Source of the DNA: an uncultured virus (IMG/VR IMGVR_UViG_3300034069_001183)
Taxonomy: Duplodnaviria > Heunggongvirae > Uroviricota > Caudoviricetes
IMG/VR virus record: IMGVR_UViG_3300034069_001183
DNA: 64,000 nucleotides
Strand: one strand, 5' to 3'
Shown: positions 38,842 through 57,686 of the stretch, piece by piece
Position numbering within the stretch: position 1 is the first letter of the stretch
How the letters are laid out: each line of letters starts with the position of its first letter
Notes under the pieces: model-generated
The model's database searches: none
Seen by the model: only the letters and a program-made list of their open reading frames with translations
Told to the model about the DNA's origin: nothing
Translations under genes and position numbers: made by a program

Positions 38842-40224
38842 ATGTGCGGAATATTTGGAATAATAAATAAAAAGAAGAGCGATTTTGATAAGACAACATT
38901 TAATGTCTTAGGTATTAATAATGACACTAGAGGAGGTGATTCTTGTGGAGTTTTTATTGATGGTCGCTATGAGTATGGTGTAGACGATAAGAGTTACTAT
39001 GAGGAATTTTTTGAGACAAGTAAGATCTTAAAGACTACCACTAAGTGTACTATTGCAATCGGTCATGATAGGAAGGCAAGTGTTGGTAAGATTGATAAAA
39101 CTACTGCACAGCCAATAGTCCTCAAAAAAAAAAAAGGCGAGGTAGAATTTGTAGTGATTCATAATGGAACTATCTACAACTATCTTGACCTGGCTAAGAA
39201 GTATATCCCAGGTGTTAAGATCGAAGGCCTAACAGATTCACAAGTAATGGCAAGAATCTTTTACTACAAGGGATATGATGTACTAGAAGAGTATAATGGA
39301 GGTGCTGTATTTGTAGTCGTTGATTATAGACAGCCAAAACCTAAGGTACTATTCTTCAAGGGCGCATCTAAGAAGTACAATACAGGCAAAGAGATGGATG
39401 AAAGACCATTCTACTTCTCAATTGATCCAAAGCAAGGGTTAGTATTCAGCTCCATCAGTACATACCTTAAAGCACTTAGGCCAGAAGGAGAGGTATATAC
39501 TATCAAAGCTAACCAACTGATAGATTACAACAATGAGACCTGTAAGATGACAATTATTAAGAACGTTGACAGGTCTAAACAGCAACAGACAAAGGAATAC
39601 ACAAACAAGTATAGTTTTGCAAGTGAGATTCCTTCTAAGTGGAGTGGCTACAGTAACAGTAAATATAGTAGCGGTGGTTGTTGTGGATATACAGAATCAT
39701 CTTATGTGAAGGTTGACTATCTCAGTAATACCTATTCAAATAAAAAGGGTAAACTACACGGAGAGTATCATATGACAAGATATGGAAAATTCGTGAGCCC
39801 TGATAGTAAAGATTCAGAAGTATTTAATGTCTGGTTCTTTAACGGTATTGCGCTGAAAGGAAAGGAGGAGTTTAAGTTTCTTGAGTATTTTAACAAGAAG
39901 ACAAAACTGGATATCAACAAGTTCACAGAGAGATATCAAAACTTAGTGAGGTCAATCAGTGTGGATGGCCTGTACTGGAAGGAGATAGATGGTGAAGAGT
40001 ATCTAGTAAGGGCAATTAGTACAGATGATTTCCAGAAGTTTACAGGTGGCTTTCAGATGTTAGGTCAATCTAGTAATAAACAGTACTTAGTTGGAAGGTA
40101 TACTGGTGACTGTTACTCTGGATTTGATAGACCTTTCGTATTTATAGATGAGAAAGATAAGTTCAATATCAAAAGCTTCTATAAGATATGCAAGTTATTG
40201 ATGAAGTCAGCGGTAATAAAATAG
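38842..40224 (+). CDS. Class II (Ntn) glutamine amidotransferase
   Basis: N-terminal MCGIFG, RGGDS, GHDRKAS, HNG and TDS. Confidence 0.85.
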   Translation: MCGIFGIINKKKSDFDKTTFNVLGINNDTRGGDSCGVFIDGRYEYGVDDKSYYEEFFETSKILKTTTKCTIAIGHDRKASVGKIDKTTAQPIVLKKKKGEVEFVVIHNGTIYNYLDLAKKYIPGVKIEGLTDSQVMARIFYYKGYDVLEEYNGGAVFVVVDYRQPKPKVLFFKGASKKYNTGKEMDERPFYFSIDPKQGLVFSSISTYLKALRPEGEVYTIKANQLIDYNNETCKMTIIKNVDRSKQQQTKEYTNKYSFASEIPSKWSGYSNSKYSSGGCCGYTESSYVKVDYLSNTYSNKKGKLHGEYHMTRYGKFVSPDSKDSEVFNVWFFNGIALKGKEEFKFLEYFNKKTKLDINKFTERYQNLVRSISVDGLYWKEIDGEEYLVRAISTDDFQKFTGGFQMLGQSSNKQYLVGRYTGDCYSGFDRPFVFIDEKDKFNIKSFYKICKLLMKSAVIK

Positions 40225-41447
40225 ATGTGTTTTCAGCCATCAAGGTAATCATTGGGCTGAATAAAGAAGATGAGACTCTTATTTATGGTTATATAGATTC
40301 AAAACATTTAAACCTAACTAAGAGAGTACTAGTAGGTTCCAGAGGTGCAATTATGTATGTACTTACTACTAAATTCCCTGAAGATGAGCTATTCTTCAGT
40401 AGGTATTATGGTATGTATAGGACTAAGATAGGCCTCTCTCAAGCAGATATACAGAGAGAGTCTAAAATTCTAGGTAAAGGTAGTTTTCCGTATAGCTTTG
40501 AAAGGATGTACGAAGCAGTTGACAACTTTCAGATTTTCCAAGACAAGGATAAGCTGATTGATACTGAATTCAAACACCCCCTCGCTAAACAGATGAACTA
40601 TACATTTGGCTTAGAGTTTGAGACATGTAAGGGCTATATACCAGAGGATATTTGTTTCAGAGATGGACTTATACCGCTTAGAGATGGATCTATTAGTGGG
40701 CTTGAGTATAGTACTTTGGTTTTGCAGGGAAATTCTGGACTATCTATGCTAAAACAACAGATAGGTACCTTACAGGAATATACTAGGTTTGACAAAGACT
40801 GCTCCTTACATATTCACTTCGGCGGTTATCCATTACAGGCTGATAAACTATGGGCGCTTTATTCAGTGTGTTATAGAATTCAGGACAACCTTAAAGGATA
40901 TGTACCTAAGTTTACATTTTATAGTAGTAGGTATAAGAGTTCTGGGAAGGATTATTGCAAATTCCTACCAGACTTTGATAGCTTTAACGAACTATATGAA
41001 ACTTTTGTAGGGAGAAGATTCTTTGGTGACTTATCTCAACCACATCCAAATGATCCAAAGAGATGTGCTAAGTGGAGAATCCCGCACAGATATTATTGGG
41101 TTAACTTTATAAATGCAATGTGCTATAAGGTTAACAAGACAATCGAATTTAGATTACTTAGACCAACATTTAATTATGCAAAGATAACATTATGGATGTA
41201 TGTGTTTAATGCAATCTTAAAATATGCCGACAAACATTCAGATACTTGTCACTTAGGCCTAGATAAATCAAGCCTAATGATTTCAGATATACTGGATGAT
41301 GTCTACCCAAAGAGACTTGCTAGTAAACTTAAGACTAGATGGAATCGTCTTAGCAAGGCAGTAATGGATCAAGAGAAAAAGGGTGATTACATTGGCAGTA
41401 AGGTTGACATAGATAACAATTACATACCAGTATTTGAAATAATCTAA
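40188..41447 (+). CDS. Putative amidoligase (COOH-NH2 ligase type 1)
   Basis: FGLEFE, DGSI..LEY, CSLHIHFG, RY.WVN and TIEFR. Confidence 0.8.
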   Translation: MQVIDEVSGNKIDVFSAIKVIIGLNKEDETLIYGYIDSKHLNLTKRVLVGSRGAIMYVLTTKFPEDELFFSRYYGMYRTKIGLSQADIQRESKILGKGSFPYSFERMYEAVDNFQIFQDKDKLIDTEFKHPLAKQMNYTFGLEFETCKGYIPEDICFRDGLIPLRDGSISGLEYSTLVLQGNSGLSMLKQQIGTLQEYTRFDKDCSLHIHFGGYPLQADKLWALYSVCYRIQDNLKGYVPKFTFYSSRYKSSGKDYCKFLPDFDSFNELYETFVGRRFFGDLSQPHPNDPKRCAKWRIPHRYYWVNFINAMCYKVNKTIEFRLLRPTFNYAKITLWMYVFNAILKYADKHSDTCHLGLDKSSLMISDILDDVYPKRLASKLKTRWNRLSKAVMDQEKKGDYIGSKVDIDNNYIPVFEII

Positions 41448-41451
41448 AGAA

Positions 41452-41499
41452 CGAAAAGAAAGTAGTAGAAAGTTAAATTCTACTACTTATTTTTTTTTT
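41452..41499. terminator. Bidirectional terminator; direct repeat copy 1
   Basis: AAGTAGTAGAA/TTCTACTACTT stem with A- and T-tracts; near-identical to 44651-44696. Confidence 0.75.
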
Positions 41500-42577
41500 A
41501 CAATTCCTCAATCCATTTCAGAACGAGATTAATACAAGACTCTACATCATCCCAGTGACATTGTTCGTATGGTTGATGCATGTTTCTGTTAGGCAAGCTC
41601 AATAACATGGTCTCACAGTTTGTTGCATGTTCCTGTATTGCGCTTGTATTAGTACCCCCTGCTCTACCAACACCAATCTGATAAGAGATGTTATTCTTCT
41701 CTGCCAAGTATTTCATAGTGTCACCAATTCTTCTTGACTTCGCTGGGCCATATTCTATTACTACACCCTTGCCCAAACTAATATCACCGTACATTGCTGA
41801 ACTGATACCAAGATCCTTTTCAGTACTTGGGCAAACGTCAAAATCGATGCTTATTTCGGGGTCAACTCTTCTGGCTAGTACTTTTGCGCCCCTAAGTCCA
41901 GATTCTTCACCTGCTACACCTGCACCAAATAATGTAATGTTCTTTTTCACGAGCAAGTCTTCATCTACCCTGCGCAAGATTTCAGCCACGATATACACCC
42001 CGAGTTTATCATCGAGACTATTACCAACGATGAATTTACCTGAAGGGCCAAAGTTAATATTCTGTTCATACTTCGGATAGACTAAGAGAGTGCCTACACC
42101 AATACCAAGACCTTCAAGCTCTTTCTTATCAGTGCATCCAAAGTCAAGGCACAAGTCCTCCATCTTAGCAATACTATCATACTCACCTCCTGTCTGAACA
42201 TGTATCGCCTTGTACTGAATAATACCGTCTACCATTCCATCCTTAGTGAGCGCAGAAAGTCTAGAACCAGGTAAGACACGACGATCTTCACCACTAATTC
42301 TAACTATCTTACACATACCAGATTCAGTTACCTCACTCACTAAGAAACCAAGTTCATCATAGTGACCTGATAACAAGATAGGGGTACCATTGATTGCACC
42401 TTTTGTAAATACTGAGTTCTGAAATTTGTCGGTGAATGCATGTCGGCTAAATTCTGACATATGATTGTTAAATACGTCAACCGCTGCATTCTCATAACCT
42501 GTTGGAGATGGTGCCTCCAATAATTCTTCTAAGAACTTTTGATTTTCTTTCATTTCTTTTTCTATGTTTTTATTCAT
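41498..42577 (-). CDS. M42 family aminopeptidase
   Basis: PSPTGYE, GHYDELG, LDDKLG, GEESGLRGA and MHQP; likely start MNKNIE. Confidence 0.85.
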   Translation of the reverse strand: MNKNIEKEMKENQKFLEELLEAPSPTGYENAAVDVFNNHMSEFSRHAFTDKFQNSVFTKGAINGTPILLSGHYDELGFLVSEVTESGMCKIVRISGEDRRVLPGSRLSALTKDGMVDGIIQYKAIHVQTGGEYDSIAKMEDLCLDFGCTDKKELEGLGIGVGTLLVYPKYEQNINFGPSGKFIVGNSLDDKLGVYIVAEILRRVDEDLLVKKNITLFGAGVAGEESGLRGAKVLARRVDPEISIDFDVCPSTEKDLGISSAMYGDISLGKGVVIEYGPAKSRRIGDTMKYLAEKNNISYQIGVGRAGGTNTSAIQEHATNCETMLLSLPNRNMHQPYEQCHWDDVESCINLVLKWIEEL

Positions 42578-42645
42578 TACAATATTAAGGTATCTAGGGT
42601 AATACAGAGTCCGCTTCAAGGCCTTCAAAAAATGACGTCTAGGAA

Positions 42646-42669
42646 GCCTCAAAATCCTTATTAGTGTAA
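42646..42669 (+). promoter_or_regulatory. Phage promoter motif (divergent pair with 42578-42599)
   Basis: GCCTCAAAATCCTTATTAGTGTAA. Confidence 0.7.
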
Positions 42670-43300
42670 TGATAATAAAGCATTACCTGAAGGATATTAG
42701 AACTAGATTCTAGTATCCAATTATATTTTCATGTACTTGAAACGAATAGTACTAGTATTATAATGAGCCTGAAGGTGGTCTACGGGAGATTATAGTACGA
42801 ATAATTTAATGAGGTGACATTAACTTCGGCTTGGCGAAGTAAAAATAGTAGACGTATTTCACTATTAATCAGTGATTGATTTGAAGTGGGAGTTTGTTAT
42901 ACCCGTGAAATATATAGGCCGAGCGCGTATAAAGGTTTTAAGGGCACATTATGACAGACCTACATTTAGTGGGACTGTTTGTGTAACAAAATAAAGATTA
43001 AACTATAGCGAAGAGTTATAGTTGGATATGTATGTACTGAACATGAGGAATGATCAGCAGCAATATCAAAACACAGTAGTCAGAATATTATGACGAACTG
43101 AGAAATAATAGAATGTATGTATTGACAAGCTATTAAAGTATCGGGGTGGACTACTAGGGATTAAGTAATACAACTTAATTATTAGGTGAGGATTATATCG
43201 GTTGATATAGGACCTTGGTATAGTATTGAAGAAGTACTATTGCTCCACCTAATTAGTAGTAGGAAGTCTAGATAAGAGAAGTATCTAGCAAGTTATTAAA
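42670..43300 (+). ncRNA. Candidate large structured ncRNA or leader (~630 nt)
   Basis: No long ORF; many stems, e.g. GTCTAC/GTAGAC, TATTTCAC/GTGAAATA, ACTTCG/CGAAGT, AACTATAGC/GTTATAGTT, ATTAGGTG/CACCTAAT and CTAGATA/TATCTAG. Confidence 0.55.
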
Positions 43301-43336
43301 CTTTATGACATTATTAACATTTTAAATTAAACGATT

Positions 43337-43528
43337 ATGAACAGTTTTGTAAAAGAAGTTAAGAACGGAGCAGTTTGCTCTGCAAAAGTAGGTGCATGCG
43401 TGTTTGTATTTTACGGCGCATTGTCAGTAGTAAATTTGATCCTCGGCGCAGGTAGCAAAGAGGAAGTAGAAAAGACACCAGAGACTAATCCTACTGGTGA
43501 ACAACCTTTAGAGGGTGCTGCTAAATAG
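43337..43528 (+). CDS. Small membrane protein
   Basis: TM helix; TTAACA start region. Confidence 0.6.
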   Translation: MNSFVKEVKNGAVCSAKVGACVFVFYGALSVVNLILGAGSKEEVEKTPETNPTGEQPLEGAAK

Positions 43529-43566
43529 CACTCTCAGTACATATTAACAATTTAAAAACTTATATT

Positions 43567-43680
43567 ATGGATAAAGATCTTAGAGGAGAAAGAATTACTA
43601 TCCTTACTGCAATAGTAGTATTGATAGTAGGTTTCATCTGGAACGTTAGCAATAAGGTTCTAGATAAGGTCGATAAGTAG
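43567..43680 (+). CDS. Small membrane protein (37 aa)
   Basis: MDKDLRGERITILTAIVVLIVGFIW... Confidence 0.6.
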   Translation: MDKDLRGERITILTAIVVLIVGFIWNVSNKVLDKVDK

Positions 43681-43741
43681 AAAACCAATAAACGGGGTCT
43701 AGCAGTAGGCCCTAGACATATTAACAATTTAAACAAAGATT

Positions 43742-43891
43742 ATGAAGAAAGAATTATCAGATATTTCTACTATTGGTATAGTAGTTTTATCAACTACAGC
43801 TCTGAAGTTATATGACTTATACAGAGCAAAGAGAGTTAGAAAATTGTATTCTAAACTAGAAAAATTGGAGGAAGAAAGCAATGAGAAATAA
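43742..43891 (+). CDS. Small membrane protein (49 aa)
   Basis: MKKELSDISTIGIVVLSTTALKLY... Confidence 0.6.
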   Translation: MKKELSDISTIGIVVLSTTALKLYDLYRAKRVRKLYSKLEKLEEESNEK

Positions 43892-44033
43892 TACAATTGC
43901 AATCGGATACGTGACTGTTATGGCGGTTGCGGCAGTGGTTGTCAAGAAATTTTATGACAGCTTCGAAAAAGATTTATTAGAGGATATTGAAAAATTCTCT
44001 AAGAAGAAAAACCAAACAAGTGCTGAAGAATAG
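43881..44033 (+). CDS. Small membrane protein (50 aa)
   Basis: MRNNTIAIGYVTVMAVAAVVVKKF... Confidence 0.6.
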   Translation: MRNNTIAIGYVTVMAVAAVVVKKFYDSFEKDLLEDIEKFSKKKNQTSAEE

Positions 44034-44073
44034 TAAGCACTTAGACATATTAACAATAAAAAAAATAAAGATT

Positions 44074-44259
44074 ATGAAAACTATAATGAGTGGATTATCA
44101 ATACTTTCATTTGTATTGTATTTTTTGTGTGTAGTCGTTCTGCACTTTAAACTTGGAAACGACACAGTTAACTTGGTATGTGATATATACCTGGTAGTTA
44201 TGGTAGTAGTATATGGATACTACGGAACAAAGATCTGGTGGAAGACGCTGGATAAATAG
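44074..44259 (+). CDS. Small two-TM membrane protein (61 aa)
   Basis: Start MKTIMSG after the ACATATTAACAAT motif. Confidence 0.6.
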   Translation: MKTIMSGLSILSFVLYFLCVVVLHFKLGNDTVNLVCDIYLVVMVVVYGYYGTKIWWKTLDK

Positions 44260-44264
44260 AATAT

Positions 44265-44310
44265 ATATAACCGGAGACACAATTGAACATGTGTTTCTGG
44301 TTATATTTTT
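44265..44310 (+). terminator. Intrinsic terminator
   Basis: ATATAACCGGAGACAC/GTGTTTCTGGTTATAT followed by a T-tract. Confidence 0.7.
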
Positions 44311-44365
44311 GCGTAATCAAGAATATAAATACTTGATCTGATGAGACATGTTTTGTCGAAACGCA
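44310..44365 (+). ncRNA. Type III hammerhead ribozyme
   Basis: TGCG-TA^-ATCAAG-loop-CTTGAT-CTGATGA-GACA-TGTTT-TGTC-GAAA-CGCA; complete catalytic core, cleavage predicted after A44315. Confidence 0.9.
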
Positions 44366-44476
44366 GTAAAAATATTAATAGGAACTAAAGCTTCCAGAGG
44401 TTATATATTTTGTAGTTAGGGTAAGTAATTGCCCTAATTATTTTTCTCTCCGATCCCCTTGAATCCTTAACTATGT

Positions 44477-44644
44477 ATGAAGGTTGATGAAATATTAGAA
44501 AAGTATAGTAGTGATAATATTGACCTGCTTTATAATAGGTTAGTAGGAATAACAATTGGGGAGAACTGGGAATATGATTATGAGGCATTTAAAAGATTCT
44601 ATGACAATGTGGATGATCTATGGCTTGTATTATCTATGTGTTAA
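44477..44644 (+). CDS. Small hypothetical protein (55 aa), probably leaderless
   Basis: MKVDEILEKYSSDNIDLLY...; promoter motif at 44455-44476 abuts the ATG. Confidence 0.55.
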   Translation: MKVDEILEKYSSDNIDLLYNRLVGITIGENWEYDYEAFKRFYDNVDDLWLVLSMC

Positions 44645-44650
44645 GAGAAG

Positions 44651-44696
44651 CGAAAAGAAAAGTAGTAGAAATTAAATCTACTACTTATTTTTTTTT
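44651..44696. terminator. Bidirectional terminator; direct repeat copy 2
   Basis: AAGTAGTAGA/TCTACTACTT stem; near-identical to 41452-41499. Confidence 0.75.
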
Positions 44697-45262
44697 CAAT
44701 CCCTGTATAACTTATTCTCTTTTATTATATCCCATGTACCCTTAGTTATCCATGGGAGAGGGATTTTATTATTTCTCAGTAAGTTTCTAATGGCGGAAGA
44801 ACTCACTGTAATACTCATGTCGGATACTTCACTACTAAAACCTGGCCTACTTATTTCAACAGTATTCCAGTTCTTTAATAGTTCTTCTCCTCTATACCAC
44901 TTCGACATATCTTTCACAGTGTCAGTTCCGCCAAGTATTACAAACTCAATATCCCTGGCATACAAATTTTTCAGTGCCTCTAGTTGATCGTAGGTATAAT
45001 AGTTTCCATCTTTATTCTGCCTACTCACTATCTCAATTCCAAACTGATCCTTACTAAAGCCAGATTCATACATAGCGGACCTTATCATATTAGCCCTTAA
45101 GTCAACACTCACCGCCTTTCTATGTTTCCAGGGATTTTGAACGGCAGGTAAGAACAATACCTTATTAACTAGTCCTTCATTTAAGACCTTACTAACTATT
45201 GCAATGTGACCTATGTGAATTGGGTCAAAACTACCAAGTAATAATCCTATCTTCATCTCCAC
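44696..45262 (-). CDS. nadD: Nicotinate/nicotinamide mononucleotide adenylyltransferase
   Basis: GSFDPIHIGH, NPWK, YTYD, KWY and VSSSAIR. Confidence 0.85.
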   Translation of the reverse strand: MEMKIGLLLGSFDPIHIGHIAIVSKVLNEGLVNKVLFLPAVQNPWKHRKAVSVDLRANMIRSAMYESGFSKDQFGIEIVSRQNKDGNYYTYDQLEALKNLYARDIEFVILGGTDTVKDMSKWYRGEELLKNWNTVEISRPGFSSEVSDMSITVSSSAIRNLLRNNKIPLPWITKGTWDIIKENKLYRD

Positions 45263-56964: not shown

Positions 56965-57686
56965 AAAAATGAGCAGTACTATATTTCAAGTACTGCCCCT
57001 AGAAACACGGCGCATTATAAAAATCATTTGAAAAGGGTGGCTCCTATAATTCCCCGTGTGTTTTCTACGTGTGTTAATTTATTTTCTTGTATCTCCATAA
57101 AAGTATTTTCTATGGTCAATATTATCAACTAGACACCATAACTACTTGGATTCAAACCAAGTTTTACCTGCAACTTAATTGTTACAGCGCTTTAGTCCCA
57201 TATAAGCTATAGTCATTGTATACCTCTATCTGACTCTATCGATTATTCTCAAATTTATACTAATTAACTAGTAAGGTCGTGATTGTTCAGTGAAGTTCTT
57301 AGGCTCCACATCAGTAATTGACTATTCAGCCGCATACTGGTTTTAGTTAAACTATGAACTACTACAACCTAACACAAAACGTTAACAATATAAAATTAAG
57401 AAGGTTTTGTGTCTTATAATATGGTTTAAAATTTCTTGTTACACATTAATGCCACTAGTAGTCCTTATAGGTCCCCAGTTTTTCAGCAGAGCATTGCCCC
57501 ACCTCAAGCATTAATTTCTTGTGTCTTAATAATATAAATTTCAGGTTCTTTACGTAGGAATCATGCAAACACTAGAACCGCATTACATTCCATAATACTA
57601 ATCTAGTCGTCACTTAGTAGATCTCCTCACGAAACTAAACATCCACGAAACTTACTACCTCATGACCTGTTTATCCACGTCTCCTA
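56965..57686 (-). ncRNA. Non-coding transcription unit with several structured domains
   Basis: Promoter motif at 57684-57706; terminator at 56965-57000; no long ORF; stems GTAGGA/TCCTAC, ATTAATGC/GCATTAAT and GACACAAAAC/GTTTTGTGTT. Confidence 0.5.
57138..57216 (-). tRNA. Aberrant tRNA-like element (no assignable anticodon)
   Basis: Cloverleaf: ATGACTA/TAGTTAT acceptor stem, GCTT/AAGC D-stem, CTGTAAC/GTTGCAG stem with AATTAA loop, CTTGG-TTTGAAT-CCAAG T-arm; no CCA. Confidence 0.55.

Follow-up and report, generated by a model that had tools for sequence, protein, structure and literature searches.

To our knowledge, only a handful of large, intricate bacterial or phage RNAs lack a known job (OLE, ROOL, GOLLD and raiA), and the study of each has yielded new structural or cell biology. 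OLE adjoins, and is co-transcribed with, the gene of a small membrane protein (OapA), and forms a membrane-bound ribonucleoprotein. ROOL is ~580 nt in length, and both ROOL and GOLLD often adjoin tRNAs; we know of no description that strictly associates either of them with a small-ORF cassette and a hammerhead. Two further elements are relevant: the boxB hairpins of lambdoid phages, which are bound by the N protein and carry GAAGA or GAAAA loops in lambda and GACAA in P22, and the type III hammerheads, which occur in phage and prophage intergenic regions. In the literature, OLE is described as a large ornate RNA of ~600 nt that forms an RNP (PMC9723947), and ROOL and GOLLD as large, highly structured, often phage- or prophage-borne RNAs found by comparative genomics (PMC5737381, 10.1101/2024.12.08.627333).

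Here we analyse a locus in the window (the whole 64,000-nucleotide stretch of DNA examined), the + strand of which almost certainly encodes a structured RNA that is genuine and conserved and belongs to a new family; our best guess is a family of the ROOL, GOLLD and OLE kind. As with OLE, a large RNA precedes membrane-protein genes. In contrast to OLE, neither the window copy nor its relatives match the OLE model, the RNA resides in a jumbo phage, where OLE belongs to extremophilic or anaerobic Gram-positive bacteria, the downstream peptides (37-126 aa) belong to no known family and a hammerhead candidate closes the module. The RNA shares its size class, intricate fold and phage location with ROOL (RF03087) and GOLLD (RF01998), but it matches neither model and its conserved blocks and architecture are unlike theirs. 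Its short hairpins with GNRA-like pentaloops recall boxB, though they lie within a 540-nt fold rather than at isolated nut sites, a counterpart of the N protein was not found, and the pentaloops may instead dock into RNA receptors. Finally, the hammerhead candidate has the CUGANGA and GAAA cores, the three stems (I and II closed) and the GUA triplet of phage type III hammerheads, but the segment 44311-44364 gives no Rfam hammerhead match at E<=10, and it closes an ORF cassette headed by a large RNA, immediately 3' of a strong hairpin.

Extent, coding status and distribution of the RNA

The start codon of an M42 peptidase gene on the - strand (ATG 42577) and the first small ORF (43337) are separated by 759 bp. 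This stretch (window 42578-43336) holds no credible ORF, the ORF listing giving only chance ORFs of <=40 aa, and the original prediction of ~670 bp without a meaningful ORF is borne out. In the six lineages, all six frames of the RNA region contain stops (5-35 per frame), and similarity between lineages is equal in all six frames. The stretch is not a decayed gene, one of the outcomes that the prediction had named as counting against it. As judged from conservation, the RNA spans ~42766-43304 on the + strand, and its 5' part may begin at a hairpin at 42733; a large noncoding RNA was thus correctly foreseen, but the conserved part is ~540 nt instead of ~630 nt. Three features lie at its 5' side:

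42692-42718, + strand: terminator-like hairpin, followed by AATTATATTTT (terminator scan)
42733-42752, + strand: hairpin GUACU-loop-AGUAC, ~15 nt 5' of the conserved 5' block
42737-42764, + strand: sigma-70-like match TTGAAA-16-TATAAT (TTGAAA 42737-42742, TATAAT 42759-42764; scan)

A hairpin with an A/T-rich run is found at the same relative place as the first of these in L004, L313, L314, L315 and L320. The stem of the 42733 hairpin differs among lineages yet pairs, with GUAGU/ACUAC in L313, GCCUU/AAGGC in L004, GUUAUA/UAUAAC in L314 and L315, and GUUAUAA/UUAUAAC in L320. A promoter motif had been placed just before 42670, where we find none; the sole strong sigma-70-like match lies inside the stretch, and its -35 element overlaps the covarying 42733 hairpin, which speaks against the promoter reading.

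Homologues were recovered by several searches. The diverged copy L004 was found by nhmmer (E 6e-14), and a metagenome pattern search gave 26 matches, eight of them true homologues on eight contigs (seven at 95-99% identity to the window and L308 at 90%). A covariance model of the core (R1) matches 15 of the 28 searched IMG/VR jumbo-phage records (E<=2.6e-8); in the other 13, all records with the M42 gene, R1 detected no convincing copy, and three of these are rated 100% complete (G003, G023 and G025). The last IMG/VR pattern yielded 46 matches, 44 of which R1 confirmed; the two without confirmation (L350 and L371) were set aside. Also discarded was L062, a false locus from the first, 21-base pattern that looks coding. 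Beyond two known contigs, two 14-base patterns gave chance matches only in IMG/VR, and blastn in distant mode against the phage GenBank collection gave no match.

In total, the family numbers more than 50 copies in six diverged lineages, with covarying pairs by the dozen. Nearly all confirmed IMG/VR copies are on jumbo-phage contigs of 70-400 kb, and the phage genomes that carry the RNA are ~300-400 kb, a size like that of the gut 'Jug' phages. As far as sampled, the family appears confined to one jumbo-phage group. Relatives carry the RNA between unrelated genes, and it is kept at ~55% overall identity although the flanking genes differ; in L320 a tRNA gene lies just upstream. Full-text literature searches yielded no description of the RNA, and passages of the 'Jug' phage description (PMC12880540) do not mention the terms noncoding, ncRNA, intergenic or hammerhead.

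Architecture and covariation of the RNA

The + strand folds with a minimum free energy of -175.3 kcal/mol (shuffles -140.3 +/- 6.7; z -5.27; 0/20 shuffles as good), 44 kcal/mol below the - strand (-131.4 kcal/mol; z -3.8). Three covariance models cover the 5' domain (R2), the core (R1) and the 3' domain (R3), and the middle region was folded with RNAfold as the equivalent segment of eight sequences. The features, all on the + strand, are as follows:

42766-42937, + strand: 5' domain (R2 model, covariation)
5' domain, + strand: invariant block (A)CUGAAGGUG
42778-42783 with 42848-42853, + strand: P1, enclosing three hairpins and the AAAAAUAG block
42855-42862 with 42905-42912, + strand: P2, three-way junction
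42891-42901, + strand: conserved loop AGUUUGUUAUA of hairpin P2b within P2
3' end of the 5' domain, + strand: AUAGGC..GCGUA hairpin, then AAAGGUU (42931-42937)
42938-43030, + strand: middle region (RNAfold)
42953-42963 with 42969-42979, + strand: long hairpin Hb, then an A-rich linker
43001-43009 with 43015-43023, + strand: Hc, with GAAGA pentaloop at 43010-43014
43031-43186, + strand: core (R1 model, covariation)
43037-43057, + strand: Hd, with GAGGA, GAAGA or GAUAA pentaloop
43074-43100, + strand: He, AAACACAGUA-hairpin-GAACUGAGAAA
43106-43135, + strand: Hf, loop UGUAUU at 43118-43123, followed by AGUAUCGGGGUGG
43159-43180, + strand: Hg, loop AAUACA at 43167-43172
43146-43306, + strand: 3' domain (R3 model, covariation)
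43149-43156 with 43254-43261, + strand: Px, enclosing Hg and Hh
43181-43188 with 43246-43253, + strand: Hh
43217-43244, + strand: third GAAGA hairpin, among variable inner hairpins of the 3' domain
43268-43288, + strand: Hj, with conserved AGAGAAG loop
43298-43304, + strand: tail AAACUUU, able to pair with AAAGGUU 42931-42937

According to the models, the 5' domain is built of a four-way junction (P1) and a three-way junction (P2) with the conserved loop GUUGUUAUA. Seven of the eight pairings listed in the original prediction were counted within conserved, covarying helices. GTCTAC/GTAGAC corresponds to P1 and TATTTCAC/GTGAAATA to P2, both conserved and covarying, ACTTCG/CGAAGT to P1c, AACTATAGC-GAAGA-GTTATAGTT to Hc, ATTAGGTG/CACCTAAT to Hh and CTACTA/TAGTAG to the covarying Px; ATAGTATT-GAAGA-AGTACTAT does form a hairpin, but a lineage-specific one. 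The enclosing pair GCCT/AGGC did not hold up, being lost in relatives (L004 has ATACTGAAGG at that place). The proposed sharing of a GAAGA loop by two hairpins is real, and the further hairpin Hd carries GAGGA in the window copy, where relatives have GAAGA. Indeed, GNRA-like pentaloops cap two or three hairpins, and they are GAAGA or GAUAA by lineage, changing together. At the Hc site the pentaloop is GAAGA in the window clade, L004 and L313, and GAUAA in L314, L315, L324 and L320. The equivalents of Hb in the eight sequences are long hairpins of unrelated sequence.

The loops of Hf and Hg are complementary and probably form a kissing loop. This helix is 98.8% paired over 15 distinct sequences and mostly invariant, and L313 has CUGUAA/UUACAG in place of CUGUAU/AUACAG. 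The pairing of the tail with AAAGGUU is compatible in 6/6 lineages, with C/U variation only; two-sided covariation is little or none for both the kissing loop and this helix. Three other pairings were tried and abandoned. A long-range GGUGGU/ACUACU helix hinted at by the window MFE was dropped because ACUACUA pairs with UAGUAGU in the covarying Px, a GUAU/AUAC pseudoknot was superseded by the Hf/Hg kissing loop, and AACC after Hc, as another partner of AAAGGUU, fits five lineages but fails in the window clade.

Multi-branch pairing had been noted in the original prediction, and compensatory changes are abundant in all three domains. Because MAFFT placed several stems of the 5' domain out of register, model-based alignments were used; these follow the model structure by construction, so that the fraction of cells paired is inflated (93.6-97% over the three models, across lineages only ~55% identical), and with only about six independent lineages each covariation count repeats few events. 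In the 5' domain, 96.0% of cells pair and 29/45 pairs show changes on both sides (78 cells), compared with only 2-11 such pairs in slid controls; all of P1 (6/6) and P2 (8/8) are included. In the core, pairing reaches 93.6% of cells over 15 distinct sequences, with both-side changes in 23/36 pairs (10/30 in the first sequence set); across the three domains, shifted controls stay at 2-11 pairs. The corresponding values for the 3' domain are 97.2% and 26/52 pairs, against 4-9 in controls, with Px contributing 7/8, Hh 5/8 and Hj 5/7. None of 500 shuffles equalled the observed values, over five measures and four counts. Inside the window clade itself, a compensatory U-A to C-G change is seen at 42869/42879 (G001 and run X2).

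Only window-clade sequences went into R2 and R3, which makes the matches of these models to distant lineages independent detections. R2 scored L320 at 86 bits, L313 at 72, L314 at 59, L324 at 52 and L004 at 43; the L315-type 5' domain, which has an insertion of ~130 nt, reached only 15.5 bits. R3 matched 15/16 sources, missing L313. G-U pairs are frequent in the helices and are specific for the + strand. These data bear on a non-functional origin, with the stretch as the remnant of a gene, as spacer, or as an element that acts at the DNA level, for instance a replication origin or a site for packaging. The A/T-richness and the many hairpins would suit such an element, but compensatory changes in 23-29 pairs per domain, the strand-specific G-U pairs, six equally similar frames that all contain stops in every lineage, and conservation at 55% identity between different flanking genes make this reading scarcely credible.

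The expectation that the RNA could be assigned to no known family was put to an Rfam check and no Rfam 15 family was matched. The RNA alone (641 nt) gave 0 matches at E<=10, cis-regulatory models included, and four distant homologues gave no family match at E<=1. The OLE model (RF01071) had no match at the gathering score in the window, none at E<=10 with the RNA alone and none at E<=1 in the four distant homologues, and the ROOL and GOLLD models matched neither the window copy nor these homologues. Riboswitch aptamers, leaders and known ribozyme cores likewise had no Rfam match. An intron was also considered and rejected: the gene upstream is encoded on the other strand, and the small ORF downstream is complete and has a start of its own. 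Rfam gave no match to group I (RF00028) or group II introns (RF00029, D1-D4 families), and the 5' block is (A)CUGAAGGUG, not GUGYG.

The ORF cassette, the hammerhead candidate and the module

Tiny membrane-protein genes had been predicted to follow the RNA, and same-strand membrane-type ORFs are indeed present in the five lineages examined (the window clade, L312, L313, L314/L315 and L320). The window cassette comprises the following:

43337-44259, + strand: five tiny ORFs, all with one hydrophobic stretch except the last, which has two
43337-43528, + strand: ORF of 63 aa
43567-43680, + strand: ORF of 37 aa
43742-43891, + strand: ORF of 49 aa
43881-44033, + strand: ORF of 50 aa
44074-44259, + strand: ORF of 61 aa, two hydrophobic stretches
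43307-43319, + strand: first copy of the cassette motif (G)ACAT(T)ATTAACA(A)
43539-43551, 43716-43728 and 44045-44057, + strand: further motif copies before later small ORFs

Comparable cassettes of single- or double-pass peptides (37-126 aa) lie 3' of the RNA in L312, L313, L314, L315, L320, L001 and L308. The five window ORFs have no PHROG match, and of 20 small ORFs taken from the window and its relatives none reaches a Pfam cut-off; as for an OLE partner, membrane-type ORFs do adjoin the RNA, none of which reaches such a cut-off. The cassettes vary in content: between the window and G001 the RNA is 98% identical, and the next gene and gene content are different.

An AGACA-N-TAACAA motif precedes small ORFs in all lineages. 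In G004 (363 kb), 7/11 motif matches fall within 2.3 kb 3' of the RNA. The motif was rejected as a general phage promoter, since its matches concentrate in the cassette and are close to the control level outside it. The copy before each ORF could nevertheless be a promoter, in which case the ORFs would be independent of the RNA. The motif also raises the possibility that the RNA acts on the cassette transcript, whether as a ribozyme of a new type or in RNA-guided processing, for example with the GUUGUUAUA loop recognizing AGACA..UAACAA before each ORF. The loop sequence UUGUUA is complementary to UAACAA in all lineages (8 bp in L004, L313 and L320), the motif is cassette-specific and the module already holds one ribozyme candidate, the hammerhead. 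However, a match of six A/U-rich pairs carries little weight, and loop and motif do not consistently co-vary: the window loop has an extra U, which L314 and L315 lack although their motif is of the window type. With no known catalytic core matching either, we consider this very improbable.

That the RNA shares a transcript with the cassette and is linked to it in function we rate at about even odds, the functional link being drawn from conserved position alone. The same layout would suit a purely cis-acting leader, a giant 5' UTR with no role of its own that would respond to temperature, a ligand or a protein, or block 5' decay, and so govern when the tiny membrane proteins are made, or how much of them (in lysis or exclusion, for example). 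Such a leader would account for the constant position of the RNA 5' of the cassette on the same strand, for the lack of a consistent terminator before the first ORF and for a 3' tail that pairs back beside the first ORF's motif in a layout that could switch. It fits less well with the free turnover of the ORFs next to an RNA that keeps its place, as in the window and G001, or with an upstream motif at each ORF, and no known aptamer matches in Rfam. In addition, 540 nt in three domains with tertiary-type elements (pentaloops and a kissing loop) exceed known leaders, the bacterial leaders of which we are aware being far below this size and complexity. We therefore rate a leader without further role as somewhat unlikely.

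The 3' end of the cassette has its own conserved features:

44265-44306, + strand: 17-bp hairpin, then TTTTTG, directly 5' of the predicted hammerhead cleavage site (terminator scan)
44311-44364, + strand: type III hammerhead ribozyme candidate (read from the sequence)
Within it, + strand: stem III GCGU/ACGC; predicted cleavage after A44315 (GUA)
44316-44337, + strand: stem I; core CUGAUGA at 44338-44344
44345-44357, + strand: stem II; GAA at 44358-44360
44365-44450, + strand: conserved tail, holding GAACUAAAG at 44382-44390
44412-44441, + strand: terminator hairpin, then a T run (terminator scan)

The candidate reads GCGUA / AUCAAG-loop-CUUGAU / CUGAUGA / GACA-loop-UGUC / GAA / ACGC and has the CUGANGA and GAAA cores, stem order and NUH site of type III hammerheads. 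A search of 44250-44460 against Rfam at E<=10 returned eight weak matches, with no hammerhead family among them. The hammerhead candidate was found again in G001 and L320 by a pattern script and in L315, L313 and L004/L312 by eye, and its stems differ yet pair across five lineages, that is, they covary. An equivalent hairpin lies 5' of the hammerhead in L315 and L320. On its 3' side, GAACTAAAG is present in the window, G001, L004/L312, L313 and L320, and GAAACTAAAG in L315. The conserved module runs from one or more upstream hairpins through the RNA, the ORF cassette, a stable hairpin, the type III hammerhead candidate and the tail to a terminator.

This conserved order bears on whether the RNA is a stand-alone, trans-acting molecule with a function unrelated to the neighbouring ORFs, such as an RNA-only multimer like ROOL or GOLLD or a decoy or sponge that counters some host factor or defence system. 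The tRNA gene just upstream in L320 recalls the tRNA neighbours of ROOL and GOLLD, and the upstream hairpins separate the RNA from the upstream genes. The size class and phage location are also those of ROOL and GOLLD, as described for them (10.1101/2024.12.08.627333). However, the cassette and hammerhead neighbourhood is kept in all lineages examined, where fast-shuffling phage genomes would part unrelated neighbours, and neither sequence nor structure matches ROOL, GOLLD or OLE. An independent RNA is therefore an improbable account of the locus.

A possible joint role of the RNA and the membrane proteins

The best explanation of the whole, which we hold with half confidence, is a new-family RNA that heads the module and acts together with the membrane-protein cassette. 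Because no consistent terminator lies between them, the RNA and ORFs would form one primary transcript, the 3' end of which would be made by hammerhead cleavage just past a protective hairpin. The RNA would act in folded form jointly with the cassette, either in a ribonucleoprotein with the small proteins, as in OLE, or by controlling, stabilising or localising the cassette mRNA.

By analogy, giant gut phages might harbour an OLE-like membrane ribonucleoprotein, with the RNA anchored by the peptides and the message trimmed by the hammerhead, a proposal to which we attach a low likelihood. Basic peptide tails could then bind the GAAGA/GAUAA pentaloop hairpins, as N peptides bind boxB. In a bolder variant, the RNA would be a new ribozyme in its own right, with the AGACA..UAACAA motifs as the sites at which it processes the cassette.

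The RNA is a well-supported addition of a new family to the OLE, ROOL, GOLLD and raiA class. Its fixed partnership with membrane ORFs and a hammerhead provides a testable handle on function, which is more than ROOL and GOLLD offered at their discovery. Acting together with the membrane-protein cassette, it would be a second, independent large RNA tied to membrane proteins and, if the resemblance to OLE extends to mechanism, a phage-encoded membrane ribonucleoprotein would operate in takeover, exclusion or lysis timing.

Genomic setting of the RNA

The window is a partial genome of an uncultivated jumbo phage. Within it, the first tiny ORF lies 759 bp from the point where an M42-family peptidase gene starts, and this interval holds only chance ORFs of ≤40 aa, in agreement with the ORF-free stretch originally described. 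The conserved structured RNA (~540 nt) occupies ~42766–43304 of this interval, which is delimited and led into by the following features:

42577, − strand: ATG of the M42-family peptidase gene (Pfam E 1e-57)
42692–42718, + strand: terminator-like hairpin, with a counterpart in all lineages
42722–42729: A/T-rich box TATATTTT, preceding the small hairpin
42733–42752, + strand: small hairpin, ~15 nt 5′ of the conserved block; stems differ yet pair in each lineage
43337, + strand: start of the first of five tiny ORFs

A decayed gene, raised in the original prediction as an alternative, is not borne out, as there are 5–35 stops per frame on both strands in six lineages. Cross-lineage similarity of the six-frame translations is alike in all frames, indicating nucleotide-level rather than coding conservation. 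The + strand of 42653–43336 folds with an MFE of −175.3 kcal/mol (shuffles, −140.3 ± 6.7; z −5.27), and the − strand with −131.4 kcal/mol (z −3.8).

The promoter motif proposed ahead of 42670 was not confirmed. The sole strong σ70-like match, TTGAAA-16-TATAAT at 42737–42764, is doubtful because the small hairpin overlaps its −35, and the RNA may start at or before 42733. The TATATTTT box resembles the Bacteroidota −7 element, such a host being presumed from the lack of Shine-Dalgarno sequences at four of the window's five small ORFs. A further + strand hairpin (42665–42690, GTAATG-loop-CATTAC) lies directly 5′ of the terminator-like hairpin, within the divergent M42 promoter region. In the relative L320, a tRNA gene (1062–1130, + strand; Rfam 43 bits) not called by ARAGORN lies directly 5′ of the terminator-like hairpin that precedes the RNA. 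An ARAGORN prediction in the window, at 57137–57216 (− strand), is a tRNA-like gene whose anticodon has four bases (atta) and to which no amino acid is assigned. Metabolic-type genes flank the module, with glutamine amidotransferase, amidoligase and M42 aminopeptidase genes upstream (38842–42577) and a cytidylyltransferase/NMN-adenylyltransferase-like gene downstream (44696–45262).

The RNA had been assigned to no known family, and none of the 4227 Rfam 15 models matches it or the four distant homologues searched. The whole window at gathering score yielded no match to the RNA, 42300–44700 at E ≤ 10 no family within the gene-free stretch, the RNA by itself at E ≤ 10 zero matches, and four distant homologues at E ≤ 1 nothing except a tRNA adjoining one of them. 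The RNA thus lies outside the families within reach of these models, which excludes OLE, ROOL, GOLLD and raiA as well as group I/II introns, RNase P, tmRNA and known riboswitches.

Distribution, fold and covariation

The nearest relative record, G001 (47 kb, rated 14% complete), carries a 98%-identical copy, and its differences include a compensatory U-A to C-G change at 42869/42879 that is also present in sequencing run X2. Searching loci around M42-gene relatives with nhmmer revealed a 55%-identical copy on a 305-kb contig, L004 (E 6e-14). A 19-base pattern found 26 loci in a metagenome collection, eight of them true homologues (seven at 95–99% identity to the window, one at 90%), four on 326–346 kb contigs. 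The core covariance model, R1, gave a single strong match in each of 15 of 28 IMG/VR records with the M42 gene (E 2e-27 to 3e-8) and nothing convincing in the other 13, including three rated complete. A last pattern, of blocks common to all distant lineages, retrieved 46 IMG/VR stretches, 44 of which R1 confirmed, on contigs of 71–401 kb. Each genome carries a single copy. M42 homologues themselves occur at 58 IMG/VR loci, mostly on contigs >100 kb.

The RNA has a conserved multidomain fold, in which two domains are bounded as follows (position 1 = window 42766):

1–172, + strand: 5′ domain
266–421, + strand: core

The 5′ domain opens with an invariant (A)CUGAAGGUG block, followed by helix P1 around three hairpins, AAAAAUAG, the three-way junction P2, one hairpin of which bears the conserved loop (A)AGUUGUUAUA, and at its 3′ end a hairpin (AUAGGC..GCGUA) leading to AAAGGUU. 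One sub-lineage (L315, L321, L323) has a ~130-nt insertion between the P2 junction and AAAGGUU, making this domain about 305 nt compared with 172–188 nt; L324-type sister contigs lack it and are otherwise near-identical downstream. A middle region with a long variable hairpin and a pentaloop-capped hairpin leads to the core, which consists of a second pentaloop hairpin, AAACACAGUA-hairpin-GAACUGAGAAA, hairpin Hf, AGUAUCGGGGUGG and hairpin Hg. In the 3′ domain, both Hg and Hh lie inside helix Px, Hh with variable, lineage-specific inner hairpins, and hairpin Hj carries an AGAGAAG loop before a terminal AAACUUU tail. Seven of the eight pairings originally proposed fall within conserved helices; GCCT/AGGC lies outside any.

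Pairing in alignments fitted to the model structure, representing only about six independent lineages
5′ domain: 96.0% of cells paired; both sides changed at 29 of 45 pairs (78 cells); slid controls, 2–11 pairs
Core (15 distinct sequences): 93.6% of cells paired; both sides changed at 23 of 36 pairs (79 cells); slid controls, 2–8
3′ domain: 97.2% of cells paired; both sides changed at 26 of 52 pairs (84 cells); slid controls, 4–9 pairs

Covariation, the absence of which would have told against the original prediction, is thus found above controls in all three domains, most clearly in P1 (6/6 pairs), P2 (8/8) and Px (7/8), and none of 500 shuffles attained the observed values on any of five measures. 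The 5′ and 3′ domain models, R2 and R3, although built solely from window-clade sequences, scored 43–86 bits on five lineages and 26–48 bits on distant lineages, respectively; R3 missed L313. That the RNA has no function is very unlikely.

In the window clade, L004 and L313, both conserved pentaloop hairpins are capped by GAAGA (or GAGGA); in the L314, L315 and L320 lineages both carry GAUAA, so that the loops switch jointly. The Hf loop (UGUAUU, CUGUAUA) is complementary to the Hg loop (AAUACA, UAUACAG) in all lineages, with CUGUAA facing UUACAG in L313. This loop helix is 98.8% paired, but five of its six pairs are invariant; a kissing loop is considered probable. Pairing of the tail with AAAGGUU can form in 6/6 lineages, varying only by C/U opposite G, and may provide a closing helix.

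The small-ORF cassette and hammerhead candidate

The order RNA, small-ORF cassette, hammerhead is conserved. As predicted, tiny membrane-type ORFs lie behind the RNA, on the same strand in every lineage examined. Their products are 34–126 aa long, each having a single hydrophobic stretch and many a tail rich in K/E, and most lineages' cassettes include one two-pass protein of 58–64 aa. Of 20 small ORFs from the window and relatives, none reaches a Pfam cut-off, and the window's five match no PHROG. The gene set varies, even between the window and G001. The cassette elements in the window are:

43307–43319, 43539–43551, 43716–43728, 44045–44057: copies of the cassette motif
44265–44306, + strand: 17-bp hairpin after the last ORF, directly before the hammerhead candidate
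44311–44364, + strand: type III hammerhead candidate, fitting the consensus, unannotated
44365–44450, + strand: conserved GAACUAAAG element and terminator, 3′ of the hammerhead

The motif, (G)AGACA-N-(A)TTAACAA followed by an A/T-rich run and ATTATG, precedes each tiny ORF by 20–45 nt (window, L314, L315, L320, L004, L313). It is kept across lineages with sequence-unrelated ORFs and is rare elsewhere in the genomes. In G004 (363 kb), 7 of 11 matches lie within 2.3 kb 3′ of the RNA, and a reversed control pattern has three matches genome-wide; this clustering rejects a genome-wide promoter. The UAACAA of the motif is complementary to a conserved UUGUUA loop of the RNA, weakly favoring a new processing ribozyme guided by loop–motif pairing, a reading we consider improbable.

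The hammerhead candidate comprises GCGUA, stem I (AUCAAG-loop-CUUGAU), CUGAUGA, stem II (GACA-loop-UGUC), GAA and ACGC, with cleavage predicted after A44315. This layout is kept 3′ of the cassette in G001, L320, L315, L313 and L004/L312 with stems that differ yet pair, the conserved GAACUAAAG element and a terminator again coming next, and the stems covary in five lineages. Since Rfam hammerhead models report nothing at 44311–44364, the assignment is based on reading and conservation.

Functional implications

Because no consistent terminator separates the RNA from the ORFs, both would belong to one primary transcript, its 3′ end set by hammerhead cleavage directly after the stable hairpin. 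An RNA serving purely as a cis-leader for the cassette is a real but minority possibility; the size and tertiary-type features of the RNA argue for an independent function beyond that of a leader. An RNA that acts in trans or self-assembles, unrelated to the cassette, seems less likely still, and the fixed neighborhood suggests a function involving the membrane peptides. The RNA would act jointly with the cassette, a reading given about even odds, the closest analogy being OLE RNA with OapA.

Literature searches found no description of the RNA. Many group I introns are reported in 360–402 kb gut "Jug" phages (PMC12880540), in the main text of which the words noncoding, ncRNA, intergenic and hammerhead do not occur; some relatives share the Jug size range, but the window's phage is not assigned to Jug. 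The RNA represents a new family of a known kind, the large ornate RNAs of unknown function, within a new conserved three-part module.
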